Positions 18,270-51,292 of a DNA stretch of 64,000 nt are shown in pieces. Made by a program: the position numbers and the translations under genes. The first letter of the stretch is position 1. Each line of letters begins with the position of its first letter. The notes under the pieces were generated by a model. The model was not told where the DNA came from. It searched no databases and saw only the letters and a program-made list of their open reading frames with translations. The stretch is from a virus (lineage: Duplodnaviria > Caudoviricetes). The DNA is taken from positions 19,915 to 83,914 of the IMG/VR virus record IMGVR_UViG_3300042257_000094. One strand, 5' to 3'.

Positions 18270-20234
18270 ATGACAACAGTAAAACAGTTATCTTCGGAGG
18301 AGTATATTAGACAAAGGGACTTAATTATTGATCAATATGAAAAACAGAATATAAGTGAAGAAATATGTATTCGTAAACTTCAAAATTTATATGCCAAGAG
18401 AGTTCCGCTTTATAGAAATGGTGGAACAGGATTTATTTTGTGGGCAGAAGAGAATGTCAGAGTTCTCGCGTATCTACCCGGAACATCTATTCTCAAACCC
18501 ACCTATCTTGCTGATTTGTCTCGTGAACCAGAGCCAATGACAGGAAGAACATGGTGGGATTTTTGGTGTTGGCAAAAAGATATTTGTCGGCAAGCGCTGA
18601 AACTTGACACAGACGGAAGACTCAAACATAACTTGGTTGTATTTTGTACAGAACGTGGTGAAGGAAAGTCCTTCATGGCGGTTCTTATTCTTTTGTGGAA
18701 ATTTACCGTATTCGCTAACCAACGTATATTTCTTGCGGCAAACTCAAAAGAACAGTCATCCTTTGCTCATCGTGAAGAAATGGATAAGATTATTAGAATT
18801 AGTCCGGTTCTACTTGCTCTTGTTGGAGGTGAAAAAAATATTCAGAAGAAAGAACTTGCAATCTATGATAGCCGGGGGTTGAAGATTTCGTTCATTACAA
18901 CCGTTTCTACTTTCACAGGTGTTCTTTCAAACGCAACAGGGTTCTCTTTTTCGGAGTTCTTCCAAGCAAAACCGGATGCCCCGTTCTTTAATGAAATCTA
19001 TACCTCCATGCGTAACACACCTAACGCATTAGGTGTTATTGATTCCACTGTATCAACAAGAGACCATAAGTTATATAAACTTTATGAGGCTATTCAGAAA
19101 GGAGAAAAAGGAACAGATAGTTGGTTCTTTTACTATAAGTGTAACCCCACTGCTGATGTGAACAAGTATATGTCTCCAGCAAATACACAGAAACAGCTTG
19201 ATGCCTTCCAAGCATCCACCGCAGCCAATCCAGTTGAATTTGATATGTTCTTCAAAAACACGTGGGATACAGCTCAGAAAGGCTTGTTCTCGGAAGAACT
19301 GGTAGATGCGTGTCATTATTTAGGTGCAAGTGGAAAACTACTGAATCAACAAGAGATAATGAAACAAAATGAAACATTAACTAAACATGTTTCAGATAAT
19401 GTGTATGCTGACTATCAAGGATTTGAAAAACGCTTTAATCAAGATATTGTATATTTTGACAAGAAGGCATTAAAAGATATCGATGAGTATATTGCTCCAT
19501 TGAATGAGATTGCTTATTTTGCCCCTGCGGATGCTGTTGCAAAACTTAGTGATCTTTTAGACACAGATTGGGCAATAGGACTTGGACTTGATAGAAGTGA
19601 CCCACTTGCAACTCGTTCTTCAGCACAGACAGTTTTAACTTGTGTTGCAAAAGGATTGCCTGGAAGTCGATCTAATCCACAGAAGTTTGTAGATATGTCA
19701 AAAGAAGATTATGACGCTCCTGATTATATTCATATTTTGATCGGTATTCATGTTTCTAGTAGTAGTAATAGTAATGACCTGCAAAAGATTATTAGTGAAT
19801 GGGCCGATGAATATAACGGTATCGAATCGTTTTCTTCTGACCGCTATGGTGTAAGTGATTTGGCGGGGTGGTTGACGAGTGAAGAAATTGTAGAAAAACC
19901 TGAAGTTGTTCATTTCTCACAACAGAAACAACAGGAAGTGTTTTCTATTCTCTATAACACCGTTGCCTATGGTAGATTCAAGATGCCAAGGATTCATATT
20001 GTTGGCGCAAAAGAAAGCGATATTCTTGTAGAGCAGCTCAAAAACTTTTCTGTTACTTATGATGGAAGAAAAGTGACTTATGGTAGTCCGGATAAAAAAC
20101 ACATGGGAGCGATTCAGGATGATGCTGTAGATGCACTTGCGATGGCTGTTTACGGCATGCGGTATTTGGGATTAGACGACTTTAGATCGGTAGACGGTTC
20201 TTTATTTTTTGGAACGTATATTCCCCCACAATAA
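18270..20234 (+). CDS. terL: terminase large subunit
   Basis: WQKD Q-motif, ERGEGKS Walker A, AANSKEQS, DST motif III, RNase H-like GLGLDRS and QDDAVDALAMA. Confidence 0.9.
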   Translation: MTTVKQLSSEEYIRQRDLIIDQYEKQNISEEICIRKLQNLYAKRVPLYRNGGTGFILWAEENVRVLAYLPGTSILKPTYLADLSREPEPMTGRTWWDFWCWQKDICRQALKLDTDGRLKHNLVVFCTERGEGKSFMAVLILLWKFTVFANQRIFLAANSKEQSSFAHREEMDKIIRISPVLLALVGGEKNIQKKELAIYDSRGLKISFITTVSTFTGVLSNATGFSFSEFFQAKPDAPFFNEIYTSMRNTPNALGVIDSTVSTRDHKLYKLYEAIQKGEKGTDSWFFYYKCNPTADVNKYMSPANTQKQLDAFQASTAANPVEFDMFFKNTWDTAQKGLFSEELVDACHYLGASGKLLNQQEIMKQNETLTKHVSDNVYADYQGFEKRFNQDIVYFDKKALKDIDEYIAPLNEIAYFAPADAVAKLSDLLDTDWAIGLGLDRSDPLATRSSAQTVLTCVAKGLPGSRSNPQKFVDMSKEDYDAPDYIHILIGIHVSSSSNSNDLQKIISEWADEYNGIESFSSDRYGVSDLAGWLTSEEIVEKPEVVHFSQQKQQEVFSILYNTVAYGRFKMPRIHIVGAKESDILVEQLKNFSVTYDGRKVTYGSPDKKHMGAIQDDAVDALAMAVYGMRYLGLDDFRSVDGSLFFGTYIPPQ

Positions 20235-46140: not shown

Positions 46141-46761
46141 TTACCCTTGATTATATGCTTTGAAAAAACTATTTACATCCAATAATGACTCCTTAGAACA
46201 TAATTCAGGGCGTTTGTTAAGAAACTTTTCAAAATACCCACAAGTTTTCAATTCTTCACAATTTCGTTTTTTGATGCACTGGGGGACCATTCGATAGGCC
46301 AAGTCATAATCAACCCTTTGTACCTCAGTTCTAATTGCGTTCATAACCCACCTGGTATCGCGTGAGGATTTATAACAAAGCCTTTTATAGGACATATTGA
46401 GCATAGCTTCGGCGTTGCATATAAAATCCATTCTTACGGGAATATTTCGCGCAGTATCAATAAGATCATCCACGGTTTTGATTTCTAGTGAGAGCCTTTC
46501 ATCACTCTTTTTTCTACGATCCGACCTATTGGATTTGACAAAAGGAACGATAGTAACATGACGAACAAGATGCATTGCCACATAAGAAGGAATGTCATAT
46601 AGAGAAACATAGAAAATCTGTGTACGCATTGGTGAGTGCATACATTGATAAAGTCTATCCAGTGTGATATTTGAATCTGCATCTATGGTTGCCCCACATG
46701 CCCTTTGTGCTAGTTCCCTGTTTGTTACTTTCTCTACTTCTACTCTGAAAGTTTTACTCAT
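46141..46761 (-). CDS. thyX: divergent flavin-dependent thymidylate synthase
   Basis: HSPMR...HLVRH....SNR...RLC...MVPQC...C.E...CG. Confidence 0.6.
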   Translation of the reverse strand: MSKTFRVEVEKVTNRELAQRACGATIDADSNITLDRLYQCMHSPMRTQIFYVSLYDIPSYVAMHLVRHVTIVPFVKSNRSDRRKKSDERLSLEIKTVDDLIDTARNIPVRMDFICNAEAMLNMSYKRLCYKSSRDTRWVMNAIRTEVQRVDYDLAYRMVPQCIKKRNCEELKTCGYFEKFLNKRPELCSKESLLDVNSFFKAYNQG

Positions 46762-47104
46762 TTTCAACCACCCACTTATTATTCTCTTTTACTTCTATTT
46801 TAAGATTTTTAGGATTTAACATTTCTTCAACTTTTTCCTCAGGGGTAGGTTGTCCTTCTAACTCAGATAATTTCATTTCACAGTATGCAAGAAATCGTTT
46901 ATCTGAAGTCATCTTTTTAAAAGCATCATTCAGGTTTTGAATACGCTCTTTATTGTTTTGTCCCGTTTTTATGATTCCGGTTTCTATATGCCGAAGTCGA
47001 ACACAATTCTTATGTCTATTTCGATGTTGTCCTCCGGCCCCTGTACCAGAGAAGTATTCAATATGGAAGTCTTTCTTGGTAACTGAAAAAACAGGTTTAG
47101 TCAT
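46754..47104 (-). CDS. minimal class I release-factor homologue (GGQ domain, ArfB/PrfH-like)
   Basis: GTGAGGQHRNRHKNCVRLRHIETG. Confidence 0.85.
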   Translation of the reverse strand: MTKPVFSVTKKDFHIEYFSGTGAGGQHRNRHKNCVRLRHIETGIIKTGQNNKERIQNLNDAFKKMTSDKRFLAYCEMKLSELEGQPTPEEKVEEMLNPKNLKIEVKENNKWVVENE

Positions 47105-47269
47105 TTTTACTTTCCTTATTTATTGGGACACACTTTTGAACCTTGTTTATATGTTTAATAGCATTTATAAAAGCATTTAAACAATCTGGACACCTTTCGG
47201 GGTAGCCGGTGGTAGTGTTAGAACACCCTTTTAAAAATTCTTTACAGGCTCTTTCATAAGGATTCATAT

Positions 47270-47473
47270 CTACCACCAATATTTACCGTCTTTTTTAGAA
47301 ACAGGAATATCCTTTCCTTCACGCATGAGTTGTTTTTCCTTTCTTCGGTCTTTTCTTCGACGCATTTCTTTATACTGTCTATAGGATTCTTTAGAGGATA
47401 GCGTGCTCCCGTCTTTACCATCCCCGATACCACCAAAAAGCGTGTAATCTTTATTTCTATATGTTTTTCCCAT
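47270..47473 (-). CDS. small basic protein
   Basis: MGKTYR...RRRKDRRKEKQ. Confidence 0.5.
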   Translation of the reverse strand: MGKTYRNKDYTLFGGIGDGKDGSTLSSKESYRQYKEMRRRKDRRKEKQLMREGKDIPVSKKDGKYWW

Positions 47474-47528
47474 ATCTTAATTCCTATTCAAAAGGAGGGG
47501 AGTTTTATTTCTCCCCTCCTTGTCTACT

Positions 47529-47657
47529 TTACATAGAGCTTCCCTTCATAGAAAGGAACTTACGATCCTTGAACTCTTGCTTCTTACCCACATTCCAGTT
47601 ATCAACAGGACGGCAGTACCCAACAATCTTAGTATAGGTCTTGCATTTAACTTTCAT
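47529..47657 (-). CDS. stand-alone glycyl-radical domain of class III RNR (42 aa, not in ORF track)
   Basis: MKVKCKTYTKIVGYCRPVDNWNVGKKQEFKDRKFLSMKGSSM; AAGGAG RBS at 47665-47670; terminator follows. Confidence 0.88.
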   Translation of the reverse strand: MKVKCKTYTKIVGYCRPVDNWNVGKKQEFKDRKFLSMKGSSM

Positions 47658-47661
47658 AGCA

Positions 47662-48213
47662 TTACTCCTTTCGAGAATCTTCTACACTACAAAGATTCCA
47701 ATTTGTTTTTTCAATAATAGGTTGCAATTCAGTGATAACTTTACCATACTCAACATCATCAACTCCTGTTACATATCGAACCTCCCTATAGTAAGTATCG
47801 GAAAAATCTGCATGATATATTAGAAAGTTAGATATTGTTTTTATATATGTTCGCGTGTTAAACGGTTTCAATCCAAGAACAATATTGCCTTCATATTCCG
47901 GCACAATGTTCATTCCGTTTGTATGCAAGGAAAGCGGGTAGTCCTCAAAAGCATTAAGAGCTTTTTCAAAATCACGATTACAGGTAGGTTCCCCTCCTGA
48001 AAGAACAACCCCAATATCAGGAACAATTTTATTTAACGCCTTTATCTCCTCATATATTTCTTCAAATGAATAATTAGCATCAGAGGTTAGAATGTGTTTA
48101 TTGTGGCAGAACGAACAATCCATATTACATCCACTAAAATAAATCGTAAACGCATATTTATTAGGAAAGTCCACCATCCCGGTGCAATATGAATAAATGG
48201 TCTTATCTGACAT
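47662..48213 (-). CDS. nrdG: anaerobic RNR activase (radical SAM)
   Basis: GCNMDCSFCHN, SGGEPT, LHTNG. Confidence 0.9.
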   Translation of the reverse strand: MSDKTIYSYCTGMVDFPNKYAFTIYFSGCNMDCSFCHNKHILTSDANYSFEEIYEEIKALNKIVPDIGVVLSGGEPTCNRDFEKALNAFEDYPLSLHTNGMNIVPEYEGNIVLGLKPFNTRTYIKTISNFLIYHADFSDTYYREVRYVTGVDDVEYGKVITELQPIIEKTNWNLCSVEDSRKE

Positions 48214-48216
48214 AGC

Positions 48217-50049
48217 CTACTCAATAATAAGTTCGGGGTTTGTTTTTCTCAGTTCATTAATTTCTTCTTCTGTATGATTATTTGGACATACAGAGTGTGC
48301 TCCTACGTGATACCCACAAATAGGACAAATAGAATACACTGTAGAGATAGAAAAATAAGGAATAGGTGTATTACAAATCATACTGATAAATTCCTTTGTT
48401 TGTTCCACGGACCACTCTTCACCAATATAGAAGTGAGTTGCCGTTCCACCAGTTGGAATAGGCTGTAGCACTGTGCGAACTTTAAGAACTTGAGAGAGAT
48501 CATCCTGAAACTCAACCGGAATATTACATCCATTAGTAAAATATGGTGCTTTTTTAAGACCACGATGAACAATGTTAGGGAATTGTTTCAGAGACTTCTT
48601 AGCAAGTTTATAAGAAGCACTTTCCGCAGGAGTCTCTTCCACGTTCCAAAGCATTTTATATTCTTCCATCCAAGACTTAGTTTTATCAACCATTCCTTGA
48701 AGAATATCTTTTCCTAGGGCAAGACCCTCCTTTGTGAGAAGAGATTGCTCATCCTTAGTGAGCATTTCTACACATTCCCACGTACCAATAAATCCAACCG
48801 TAGTAAAGAAAGTGTCGTAACCTTTAGGAAGCGCTTTTTTAGAAAGAGCTAGAAAACCCTTATTATAGGCGTCTACTACTTTTCCACGTTTCCAAATATG
48901 GTATTCTTTGATCTTTTCCATAGTTGCGTACAAGTCTTTATAGAAACGCTTAATATCTCCCCTAGATTCACATGCCAGATAGGGAAGGTTTACGGTCACA
49001 ACAACAAGACTGCCCGTTCCATCACTATTACCAAAAAGACCGCCTGTAGATTTTGCAATATCTTTAAGAGACAAACTCAGCCTACAGCAAAGAGCGCGAG
49101 TATCCTGTGGACTAAGTTTTTCCCCGCCGCCTACACCATTTACAAAGTTCTGGAAAAAAGGAATACCATACTTCGCGGTAAACTCACAAATCTTATCTGT
49201 AAGAGGGTGATCAAAGAAAGTATCTTCAACATTAAGAGTCAAAACAGGGAAAGTAAAACCAACCCCATTAGCATCTCCCTCATTAAAAGTATCAATAAAG
49301 GCTTCAGCAACAAGACGTTGCCATTCCCAAAGATCAGCGTGGGTGTGATTATTTACACGAACCCCGTCAACTGTGTAGTCATAAAATTCTTTGATAGGCT
49401 TTCCTGCGACCATAGCAACTTGATCTTTCATATCTGGCGGTACGGTAATATCAAGAGTAATATTCCCGAAGGGGGGTTGTGAGCCATATCTGGTATTAAA
49501 ATTCAAATGAAATACAAAATTCTGAATCGCTTGATAAACTTCTTCTCTTGTGAGCTTGAAAGCAGTTGCAGGAGCACATCCGCTTTTTTTAAAATCAAGA
49601 TATCGTTTATAAGCATATGGAGCTAGATAGGTATCAACCCCGTTAAATGCTTGTGCGCCTGAATAATCATTAGACATGCTCCCAATGAAATTAACCATAT
49701 GATTAATAGCAGAATTAAAATGTTTTGCAGGAGCAGCTTTAATACCAACTTCTATACCATTATTCAAAAGATCAGGAAGAGAGTTACCACAGCAGTAGGG
49801 GGTATGGGTGCCCATCCCTAGATCGTGGAGATGCACCTTTCCTTTATTGTGCATTTCTACCAACTCCCCAAATCCTTCTTCTACCATTTCCTTCAGAGTA
49901 TTGCGCCTAAGTCCTTCACTACCTACGGCCATAAGAAGTCCAGACGGACCTTTATTCTGGTTAGCATTTTCTTTCGCTACATCTCCGTCCTCCATGTATT
50001 CATTTATAATTTTACGAGCATCAATTCTAACTTCAGTCCGATTAGTCAT
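48217..50049 (-). CDS. nrdD: class III ribonucleotide reductase catalytic subunit lacking the C-terminal Gly-radical domain and ATP cone
   Basis: HLHDLG, PYCCG, SGAQAF, FTFPV, CCRL, EETPAES, TGGT; ends after CPICG...CP. Confidence 0.92.
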   Translation of the reverse strand: MTNRTEVRIDARKIINEYMEDGDVAKENANQNKGPSGLLMAVGSEGLRRNTLKEMVEEGFGELVEMHNKGKVHLHDLGMGTHTPYCCGNSLPDLLNNGIEVGIKAAPAKHFNSAINHMVNFIGSMSNDYSGAQAFNGVDTYLAPYAYKRYLDFKKSGCAPATAFKLTREEVYQAIQNFVFHLNFNTRYGSQPPFGNITLDITVPPDMKDQVAMVAGKPIKEFYDYTVDGVRVNNHTHADLWEWQRLVAEAFIDTFNEGDANGVGFTFPVLTLNVEDTFFDHPLTDKICEFTAKYGIPFFQNFVNGVGGGEKLSPQDTRALCCRLSLSLKDIAKSTGGLFGNSDGTGSLVVVTVNLPYLACESRGDIKRFYKDLYATMEKIKEYHIWKRGKVVDAYNKGFLALSKKALPKGYDTFFTTVGFIGTWECVEMLTKDEQSLLTKEGLALGKDILQGMVDKTKSWMEEYKMLWNVEETPAESASYKLAKKSLKQFPNIVHRGLKKAPYFTNGCNIPVEFQDDLSQVLKVRTVLQPIPTGGTATHFYIGEEWSVEQTKEFISMICNTPIPYFSISTVYSICPICGYHVGAHSVCPNNHTEEEINELRKTNPELIIE

Positions 50050-50158
50050 AGAAATTCCTTTATAGATAATTAGTAGGTTAAATAAAGACAATTAAGGAGT
50101 AGTGTTGAACGGTAAAAGCCCATTCCAAAACACTACTCCCTAAGTAATTACATTTCAC

Positions 50159-50188
50159 ATTATATCAAAAATCAACCGATAAGTCAAG
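50159..50188 (-). promoter_or_regulatory. sigma70 promoter for the nrd operon
   Basis: TTGACT-17-TATAAT on the minus strand. Confidence 0.8.
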
Positions 50189-50208
50189 TTATTTTTTGTT
50201 AAATTTTA

Positions 50209-50691
50209 TCAAGAACTTCCTGTTGAACCGAATCCTCCACGACTAGGAGAAGAAAGGCTCTCTACCTCTTTAATTTCAACCTTTCCCATAGGTTCTACAA
50301 GACGGAATTGACAAATCCGGTCCCCGTAGTGGATAGTTCCAGGTTTGAGGGCATAACACGGCATCCACCAGACATCATCTTGTCCGCAATAAGAAGAATC
50401 GATAACTCCCATGTGGTTAGTCTGAATCAACCCGTATTTCTTGAAAGTGGAAGAACGAGGAACTAGGTGTGCCTCCATGTTTCCAATGTTCATAGAGATG
50501 CCGAGGTTGACCATAATCGTCATTCCAGCAATATAATTAAACGGACTAGATAATGACACTTCATATTTGTTGTTTAGAATTGAACTGATTACTTTAAGGC
50601 TCGATGCCCTAAGATCAATCCAATTACCCACTTCAATCTGTTCAATCTTGGGAAGGTCTTTATCGTGATAATATATTTCAATTTTATTCAT
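50209..50691 (-). CDS. dut: trimeric dUTPase
   Basis: WIDLR, PRSST, GVIDSSYCG, GDRICQ, RGGFGSTG. Confidence 0.92.
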   Translation of the reverse strand: MNKIEIYYHDKDLPKIEQIEVGNWIDLRASSLKVISSILNNKYEVSLSSPFNYIAGMTIMVNLGISMNIGNMEAHLVPRSSTFKKYGLIQTNHMGVIDSSYCGQDDVWWMPCYALKPGTIHYGDRICQFRLVEPMGKVEIKEVESLSSPSRGGFGSTGSS

Positions 50692-51292
50692 TAGTAGGTC
50701 CTTCCTTGAGAAGTCCAGAGAGAGTTTTCGTCGATTTGTTTTTATCCCTCTCTTCCTGAAGATAAAGGACCGCCGCAGCACTATAAACAATTGCACCGAG
50801 AATTTCGTTGATTGCGGCGTCATATCCACGAAGTCCAATGAGGTTATGTGCTTCCCTCAGTTTCTTTTCAGCTTGTCCTGTGGAGTGCCCAAGCCCGTGT
50901 GCTCGGGTGGTCTCCATGATAGGCTGATCTTCAAATGGAATGGTCCCTTCCGGATTATGTCGTTCTTTGCCCTTGCCATTTGCACACTGGTCATAAGCAA
51001 GTTCAAGAACGCACTTCAACTTTCGGAAGGGATCGTGTTCTTCCTTGTTGAGGTATGGATTAGGGATTTCTTCATTCATATATTCTTTAAAAGCACTTAC
51101 CCTTTCTTTATCAACGAATTCCGCCGCCTCTACTTTTTCCCCCAGATTAATCTCTTCTCGATTTGTATTATTATTATTGTTTGTTTTATACCTAAAACGA
51201 CGTCCGCAGTTCCAACAAACCCACACACTTTGTTTTTTTACAAATTCATTACATCCACAGTAATCACAACAAAAAAGATTATTTTTTTCCAT
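50684..51292 (-). CDS. conserved phage protein (GKGKERH motif) with N-terminal Zn ribbon
   Basis: AYDQCANGKGKERH...GQAEKK.RE...EILGAIVY. Confidence 0.55.
   Translation of the reverse strand: MEKNNLFCCDYCGCNEFVKKQSVWVCWNCGRRFRYKTNNNNNTNREEINLGEKVEAAEFVDKERVSAFKEYMNEEIPNPYLNKEEHDPFRKLKCVLELAYDQCANGKGKERHNPEGTIPFEDQPIMETTRAHGLGHSTGQAEKKLREAHNLIGLRGYDAAINEILGAIVYSAAAVLYLQEERDKNKSTKTLSGLLKEGPTNE

Follow-up and report, generated by a model that had tools for sequence, protein, structure and literature searches.

Class III (anaerobic) ribonucleotide reductases (RNRs) have been described as one-chain NrdD enzymes with a separate activase, NrdG, as in phage T4 (1H78/1H79), T. maritima (4COI/4U3E) and P. 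copri (8P23). The locus described here lies on the minus strand of a 64,000-nucleotide stretch of viral DNA (Duplodnaviria; Caudoviricetes), positions 19,915 to 83,914 of IMG/VR record IMGVR_UViG_3300042257_000094 and hereafter called the window. It encodes a catalytic core of the same barrel family, an activase of the same radical S-adenosylmethionine (SAM) type and the same radical motif, x-R/K-x-V-G-Y...W-N-x-G-K, again with a putative Zn ribbon before the radical loop. Unlike the one-chain enzymes, however, it has the radical loop and the last strand on a separate product of 42 amino acids (aa) encoded after nrdG, and the core itself stops after the third Zn cysteine, where a CPNNHTEEE tail replaces the CPxC knuckle. 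It is likely that the three genes, nrdD core, nrdG and the open reading frame (ORF) for the 42-aa peptide, make up a single operon and encode a split class III RNR, in which the peptide is an obligate, trans-acting glycyl-radical subunit.

O2 destroys glycyl radical enzymes by cleaving them at the glycine that bears the radical. Small stand-alone glycyl-radical carriers, like the window peptide in that respect, are known in GrcA/YfiD of E. coli (about 127 aa) and Y06I of phage T4. Two papers describe them as spare parts for pyruvate formate-lyase (PFL) that are activated by its activase and can be phage-borne (PMC8683613, PMC13450708). The window peptide differs in being homologous to NrdD and not to PFL, with no sequence relation to GrcA/YfiD, and in its size, 42 aa against the 14.3 kDa given in the same sources (PMC8683613/PMC13450708). 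GrcA-type carriers also coexist with a full-length enzyme, which is seen in a relative of the window peptide (genome G062, below) but not in the window virus, whose sole NrdD lacks the domain. Because its partner enzyme is encoded without a radical domain of its own, the window peptide appears to be obligate rather than spare.

A second parallel is the split class II RNR NrdJa/NrdJb of Pseudomonas aeruginosa, where a functional module from the C-terminus, which includes a Zn finger, is likewise made as a polypeptide of its own (PMC9669993). That enzyme differs in belonging to the adenosylcobalamin-dependent class, and the radical site is not on its split part, which has reducing cysteines as well as an IscU-like domain. 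A June 2026 review gives spare-part proteins as known only for formate lyases and as undetermined for other glycyl radical enzymes (PMC13450708), and a 2021 paper names only YfiD and T4 Y06I as validated (PMC8683613). A search of the full-text literature, with subscription journals and supplements outside its coverage, found no split NrdD or NrdD spare part described. The window peptide is a candidate for the first replaceable radical part outside PFL.

Core, activase and peptide

A first-pass annotation, made from the letters of the sequence alone, had read the locus as an NrdD that keeps both active-site cysteine motifs and ends after CPICG..CPNNH, with the missing C-terminus in a separate ORF beyond nrdG, and had suggested aligning both ORFs to the NRDD profile. 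That alignment (Pfam PF13597, 562 positions, cut-off 26.2 bits) bears the description out: the nrdD product takes up positions 1-537 (E 1.6e-123, 413.8 bits) and the 42-aa ORF positions 532-560 (E 2.3e-7, 30.3 bits). With TIGR02487 (581 positions) the ranges are 1-545 (335 bits, cut-off 326.35) and 550-579 (E 1.4e-7). Given these E values and a score above the NRDD cut-off, the match of the short ORF is beyond chance. The C-terminal glycyl-radical motif lies on that ORF and not on the NrdD polypeptide, which has PYCCG at residues 84-88 and CCRL at 321-324 and ends in CPICGYHVGAHSVCPNNHTEEEINELRKTNPELIIE, followed by a stop. Against the more specific equivalog NF006126 the core scores 491.5 bits, under the cut-off of 548.

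The best solved relatives of the core are the NrdDs of T. maritima and P. copri, with PDB 4COI at E 5.9e-30, and its start, the ATG at 50049, agrees with that of a viral relative (L006). Across an alignment of 15 split cores, the window's and 14 cellular ones, Cys86, Cys321 and Cys322 are invariant, and the window core keeps every residue invariant among them; its tail, CPNNHTEEEI, is of the same type as the split-core tail, CPxxH[ST]xEEL. It has no ATP-cone, whereas the cellular split cores are longer by about 100 residues at the N-terminus. The activase carries CNMDCSFC, a CxxxCxxC cluster motif, and matches Radical_SAM at 50.8 bits (cut-off 29.5).

A profile of 38 members of the small family aligns to residues 610-645 of the T. 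maritima NrdD (4COI) and puts the Gly of the peptide's VGY on IVGY of that chain. Gly13 of the peptide is the putative radical site, and Cys5 a putative Zn ligand. No Gly_radical or GrcA family matches the peptide at E ≤1 in Pfam and NCBIfam, where only NrdD families do; PHROGs has no family for it, and a phmmer search with the single peptide against PDB sequences gave no match at E ≤10. Three ESM Atlas clusters of 40-48-aa NRDD-domain proteins, with scores of 0.88-0.89, under the 0.9 level, are leads only. Residue 15 (47613-47615, minus strand) is a Cys directly after the radical Gly-Tyr (VGYCRP) in all three members of the window clade; the other eight aligned stand-alone peptides have L, F or I there.

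Two observations concern the cores of relatives. In the NrdD of L006 (1610-4435), about 330 aa are inserted in frame, precisely where the Cys pair of the finger loop lies (...RAM/CPLHP...ITHN/CRL...), with a weak Intein_splicing match (24.8 bits, under the cut-off of 35.8), an insert absent from the window nrdD. The cellular split cores L056, L063 and L067 are 1004-1600 aa long, and their profile matches are interrupted.

The split in independent DNA

The virus record is complete, with 83,914 bp, direct terminal repeats and an estimated completeness of 100%. Core and peptide are the only two NRDD matches in the whole of it, and it has no class I or II RNR, so that core and activase would have no radical site without the peptide. 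A second IMG/VR record holds the same three genes, with NrdD 99.8%, NrdG 100% and the peptide 100% identical, and a third (L006) keeps the order nrdD-nrdG-peptide at NrdD identities of 80% and 75% (two halves) and an NrdG identity of 51%.

Contigs of four other public runs were compared over 47400-50200. One of them, 17,404 bases long and from an oil field, runs without gaps from 47403 to 50196 and differs by 23 substitutions, and the indels listed for the four runs fall solely in the leader of nrdD (50076-50137), none within the coding part. Among the variants listed, none is in the peptide ORF and 13 are in the 90 bases downstream (in X5). Between the window and L006 the peptide has a nonsynonymous divergence (pN) of 0.115 and a synonymous divergence (pS) of 0.713 over 38 codons; it is under purifying selection. 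The first-pass annotation had argued that neither a frameshift nor a sequencing split could explain the two pieces, and this holds, given the nrdG gene between them, the agreement of three records and the 17.4-kb contig without gaps, and the pN/pS values; the ribosome-binding site it had assigned to the peptide ORF is likewise present (Table 1).

Among GenBank phages, a nucleotide search with the 2.8-kb region gave no match. A tblastn search with the peptide gave 17 GenBank phage records, in seven of which an annotated NrdD lies under the match; no stand-alone copy was seen among the 17, and the two inspected (H2 and H3) are both C-termini of long NrdD frames.

Predicted docking and the Zn site

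A model of the complex, also proposed in the first-pass annotation, was made by folding the core (15-row alignment) with the peptide (11-row alignment). The pair scores ipSAE 0.82, 0.81 and 0.81, whereas none of three controls scores above 0.00; at least 94% of contacts are common between runs, and the partner pLDDT is at least 78. The mark for a complex is reached by 58 of 80 solved complexes and by 2 of 110 mismatched pairs, rates that are rough guides here as own alignments were used, and halves of a known fold tend to pass such a test. The model supports the predicted docking of the peptide onto the NrdD core.

The tail of the core, aligned to that of P. copri 8P23, reads iCpiCGYh.vgaH.svCPnn against rCldCGYenadaHleVCPkC. 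Its Zn-ribbon cysteines are Cys575, Cys578 and Cys588, and at the fourth position, where 8P23 has CPKC, it has Asn, so that the core holds three of the four Zn cysteines. In the model, peptide Cys5 lies against core residues 574, 575, 585, 587 and 588, Cys575 and Cys588 among them, contacts that would fit completion of the Zn site by the peptide. The earlier suggestion that a peptide cysteine completes this site is supported to the extent that the alignment leaves the core without a fourth cysteine and the model puts Cys5 near Cys575 and Cys588.

A very large family of small ORFs

The first-pass annotation had treated the case as singular, whereas the window peptide proves to belong to a very large family. 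When 5.8 billion proteins were searched for products of 20-118 aa with a profile built from 11 stand-alone peptides, at least 7954 matched at E ≤0.001 (among 8000 scored candidates). In a set of 121 family sequences, the first residue is Met in 119, the pattern Y-x-[RK]-x-[VCT]-G-Y occurs in 120, and in 118 a Cys lies three positions ahead of its Tyr. Three types of N-terminus are found repeatedly in the family, K-T-K-C-E-V-Y with one Cys, K-C-x-x-K-C-E-V-Y with two, and K-V-P-C-E-V-Y, which is the type of the cellular operons; the two-Cys type could bring the whole Zn knuckle. Such genes invite misannotation, as truncated NrdD cores are easily called pseudogenes and ORFs of 40 aa are overlooked or named as the whole reductase.

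The cellular survey covered the best 80 genome loci. The motif ends a long NrdD frame in 56 of them and lies in a frame of less than 150 aa in 24. Truncated NrdD cores with a small ORF behind them account for 18 of the 80 loci, and nrdG comes directly next in 13 of these 18, which include Anaerolineae, Elusimicrobia, Micrarchaeota, Woesearchaeota and Thermodesulfobacteriota as well as two cultured isolates (L056, L103). The remaining six short-frame loci comprise two broken-looking genes (L070, L110), two at contig ends (L098, L107) and two with no core within 6 kb (L037, L104). The order nrdD-nrdG-peptide, for which a survey had been proposed, is found in two more viral records, but the commoner order in cells is nrdD-peptide-nrdG.

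Recoding, by read-through or selenocysteine, was considered as a general cause of the cellular splits and rejected: core and peptide are in the same frame in only 6 of the 18 split loci and out of frame in 12, and the stops are mixed (TGA 10, TAA 5, TAG 3). The cellular small ORFs are for this reason separate ORFs and not the product of one recoding trick, and in the window recoding is inapplicable, because nrdG lies between core and peptide.

In a tree of 65 NrdD cores, from which 18 rows with inteins, open ends or fragments had been dropped, the split state must have changed at least 5 times (9 by parsimony). The window core cannot be placed on it because of its long branch (2.75 changes per column, with 35-38% identity to all other cores compared). 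Two fused relatives, L047 and L065, have a long linker. A Victivallales genome (G061) has four copies of the peptide (L194, L196, L197 and L198), one after a truncated nrdD and three unlinked, and a Patescibacteria genome (G062) has a normal fused NrdD together with a stand-alone copy whose radical motif is nearly identical. All four G061 copies are of the MAKCGAK[CT]E type, as in viral orphans such as L009.

Viral copies

A first scan of viruses gave 13 loci, 10 of them short frames and 3 fused, and a second gave 80 (75 short, 5 fused). Whole records were searched for 60 viruses with a short frame, namely all 10 of the first scan together with 50 of the 68 that the second had newly added. The peptide match stands alone in 55 of the 60, and a core is present too in five (G009, G010, G022, G024 and G044). 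Among these 60, the NrdD core is absent from all 11 records that are at least 90% complete. A Radical_SAM search found no match in the five orphan records first searched, two of them complete, and matched in two of nine near-complete orphan records, where the matching frames have 407-415 aa and are distant from the peptide; the window genome, as positive control, was matched. Within one complete viral genome, the window links such orphan viral peptides to a cognate core and activase.

The orphan peptide of a complete 48.9-kb virus (L012:4986-5129) has a further match, at E 5e-4, to the end of phrog_4132 (179 positions, function unknown); this family may represent a longer viral protein whose radical tail resembles that of NrdD. 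The viral fused NrdDs L002:2024-4432, L142, L164, L174 and L187 extend past the radical motif, and the extension, which has CPNCK, looks by eye thioredoxin- or glutaredoxin-like.

Proposed mechanism and alternatives

That the radical forms on the peptide, that the peptide docks and completes the Zn site, and that catalysis follows is proposed here by analogy with one-chain NrdD. The barrel and the finger-loop cysteines would come from the 610-aa core, together with three quarters of the Zn ribbon, and the 42-aa peptide would give the glycyl-radical loop with Gly13, the C-terminal strand and probably, in Cys5, the missing Zn ligand. NrdG with SAM would abstract the hydrogen of Gly13, on the free peptide or in the docked complex, and nucleotide reduction would follow once the radical has oxidised a finger-loop Cys of the core, as in the one-chain enzyme.

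Several points weigh against a working split enzyme of this kind. Before the glycine the window clade has Lys where Arg (R10) is at least 90% conserved among the 38 family members, a replacement that the first-pass annotation had noticed. The best NCBIfam family for nrdG is NrdG2 (TIGR02495; E 1.4e-21, 76.7 bits), under its cut-off of 131.15. The listed model interface includes neither Cys321 nor Cys322, so that no proximity of Gly to Cys follows from it, and the pass of the model may mirror likeness to one-chain NrdD, since solved structures of that enzyme exist. The long branch of the window NrdD could fit relaxed or altered function too, and no RNA run is listed among the public runs for this stretch; the one labelled metatranscriptomic (X17) is flagged as probable DNA and is not counted as evidence of expression.

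Whether the peptide is also exchangeable is a separate matter. We regard it as quite possible, though only tentatively, that it is a diffusible, exchangeable radical cartridge, charged by NrdG, fitting any compatible NrdD core and alone lost when O2 cleaves at Gly13, and that the viral orphans re-arm the host. The distribution of orphans and extra copies fits exchange. Replaceability and host repair are inferences, and repair of host NrdD is plausible in view of the orphans in complete viruses without a core and of the stand-alone copy beside a fused NrdD in G062. If this is right, no glycyl radical enzyme beyond PFL would have had a spare-part system known before it, and the thousands of small ORFs would amount to a widespread viral strategy for re-arming the anaerobic deoxynucleotide (dNTP) supply of the host. 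Exchange would explain a very large unnamed small-ORF family in the viruses and cells of anaerobes, and would show how phages secure dNTP synthesis under fluctuating oxygen, O2 costing them only 42 residues. With all three genes in one complete virus, the locus is a compact system for putting the spare-part question to an RNR.

Somewhat less probable, and on the whole doubtful, is that the peptide is a permanent subunit, bound for life, and that fission was a neutral accident in the linker without any advantage of replaceability. The repeated changes of the split state on the 65-core tree, by which fission and fusion in the linker would be easy, speak for it, as do the fused relatives with a long linker and the mixed frames and stops of the cellular split loci. 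The extra copies unlinked to a core, in G061 with its split NrdD and in G062 with its fused one, speak against it, and the orphans in all of the near-complete core-less viruses are hard to explain for a mere bound subunit.

The peptide might instead serve mainly the host, re-arming host NrdD, with the truncated NrdD of the phage inactive or in another role. The many viral records that have the peptide without a core fit this, but we think it improbable for the window, whose core keeps all the split-core invariants, Cys86, Cys321 and Cys322 included, is 75-80% identical to the L006 core over both halves, is tightly packed with its own activase and has the peptide placed on it in the model.

A decaying gene, in which a rearrangement put nrdG into nrdD and left non-functional remnants, would account for the difference between the viral order and the commoner cellular one. 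It is very improbable, since the peptide has its own start codon, ribosome-binding site and purifying selection, the arrangement is kept at 80% NrdD identity and none of the three frames is broken in independent contigs. Small proteins that mimic a segment of an enzyme may inhibit, and the peptide could on that ground be a decoy that titrates host NrdG or blocks host NrdD to control dNTP pools; seven of the nine near-complete orphan viruses and all five of the other orphan records are without a Radical_SAM match, which would suit a decoy. The phage core itself needs a radical source, however, and the peptide keeps all the radical-motif residues conserved in active NrdDs, so that this explanation too has a very small chance of being right. 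An artefact, with a normal fused nrdD split in assembly or sequencing, is an explanation for which no supporting point was found and has a negligible one, with the whole 552-nt nrdG between the pieces and three IMG/VR records and the 17.4-kb contig in agreement without gaps; the complete record, the relatives, the gap-free contig and pN/pS together make artefact and decaying remnant alike very unlikely.

Layout, transcription signals and neighbouring genes

The features of the locus are collected in Table 1.

Table 1. Genes and signals of the split RNR locus (window coordinates)
Feature	Position	Strand	Remarks
nrdD core	48217-50049	-	610 aa from ATG; class III RNR catalytic barrel without glycyl-radical tail
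nrdG	47662-48213	-	183 aa radical-SAM activase; start 3 nt past nrdD stop
Glycyl-radical peptide ORF	47529-47657	-	42 aa, MKVKCKTYTKIVGYCRPVDNWNVGKKQEFKDRKFLSMKGSSM; start 4 nt past nrdG stop
AAGGAG ribosome-binding site of peptide ORF	47665-47670	-	7 nt 5' of ATG, within last nrdG codons; read from sequence
Sigma-70-type promoter match	50159-50187	-	TTGACT-17-TATAAT, TG before -10 hexamer; upstream of nrdD
Leader hairpin of nrdD	50092-50143	-	-28.2 kcal/mol, z -7.3; 0/200 shuffles fold as well
Terminator-like hairpin closing three-gene unit	47492-47521	-	11 pairs, -20.9 kcal/mol, z -4.4; 3' of peptide ORF

The promoter match agrees at 11 of 12 positions and is the best of the region. Promoter-like sites are no more frequent here than in shuffled sequence (9 against a mean of 9.4), and the placement of this one upstream of nrdD is suggestive only. 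The leader hairpin sits between the promoter match and the start codon, and variant contig X8 has small indels at 50076-50137 in this leader. An Rfam scan of 47000-50600 found nothing meaningful, the sole match, at E 0.35, lying far under its gathering score.

The terminator that the first-pass annotation had placed after the peptide ORF stands in part: the hairpin is present, but a pattern scan calls it terminator-like on the plus strand only. On the minus strand its U-run is 4 when the last two stem bases are included. The oil-field variant has 47494 G>A and 47519 C>T in this hairpin, and because these alter both sides of one base pair the change is compensatory.

A dUTPase-domain protein is encoded at 50209-50838 (minus strand), directly upstream of the nrdD promoter match, and with this gene adjoining it the nrdD region forms a nucleotide-metabolism cluster. 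On the other side, no Pfam family matches the 208-aa ORF at 46141-46767, and 46754-47104 (minus strand), the second gene downstream from that of the peptide, encodes a 116-aa phage protein with an RF-1 domain (E 4e-13) and a GGQ motif, which resembles a peptidyl-tRNA hydrolase or ribosome-rescue factor.

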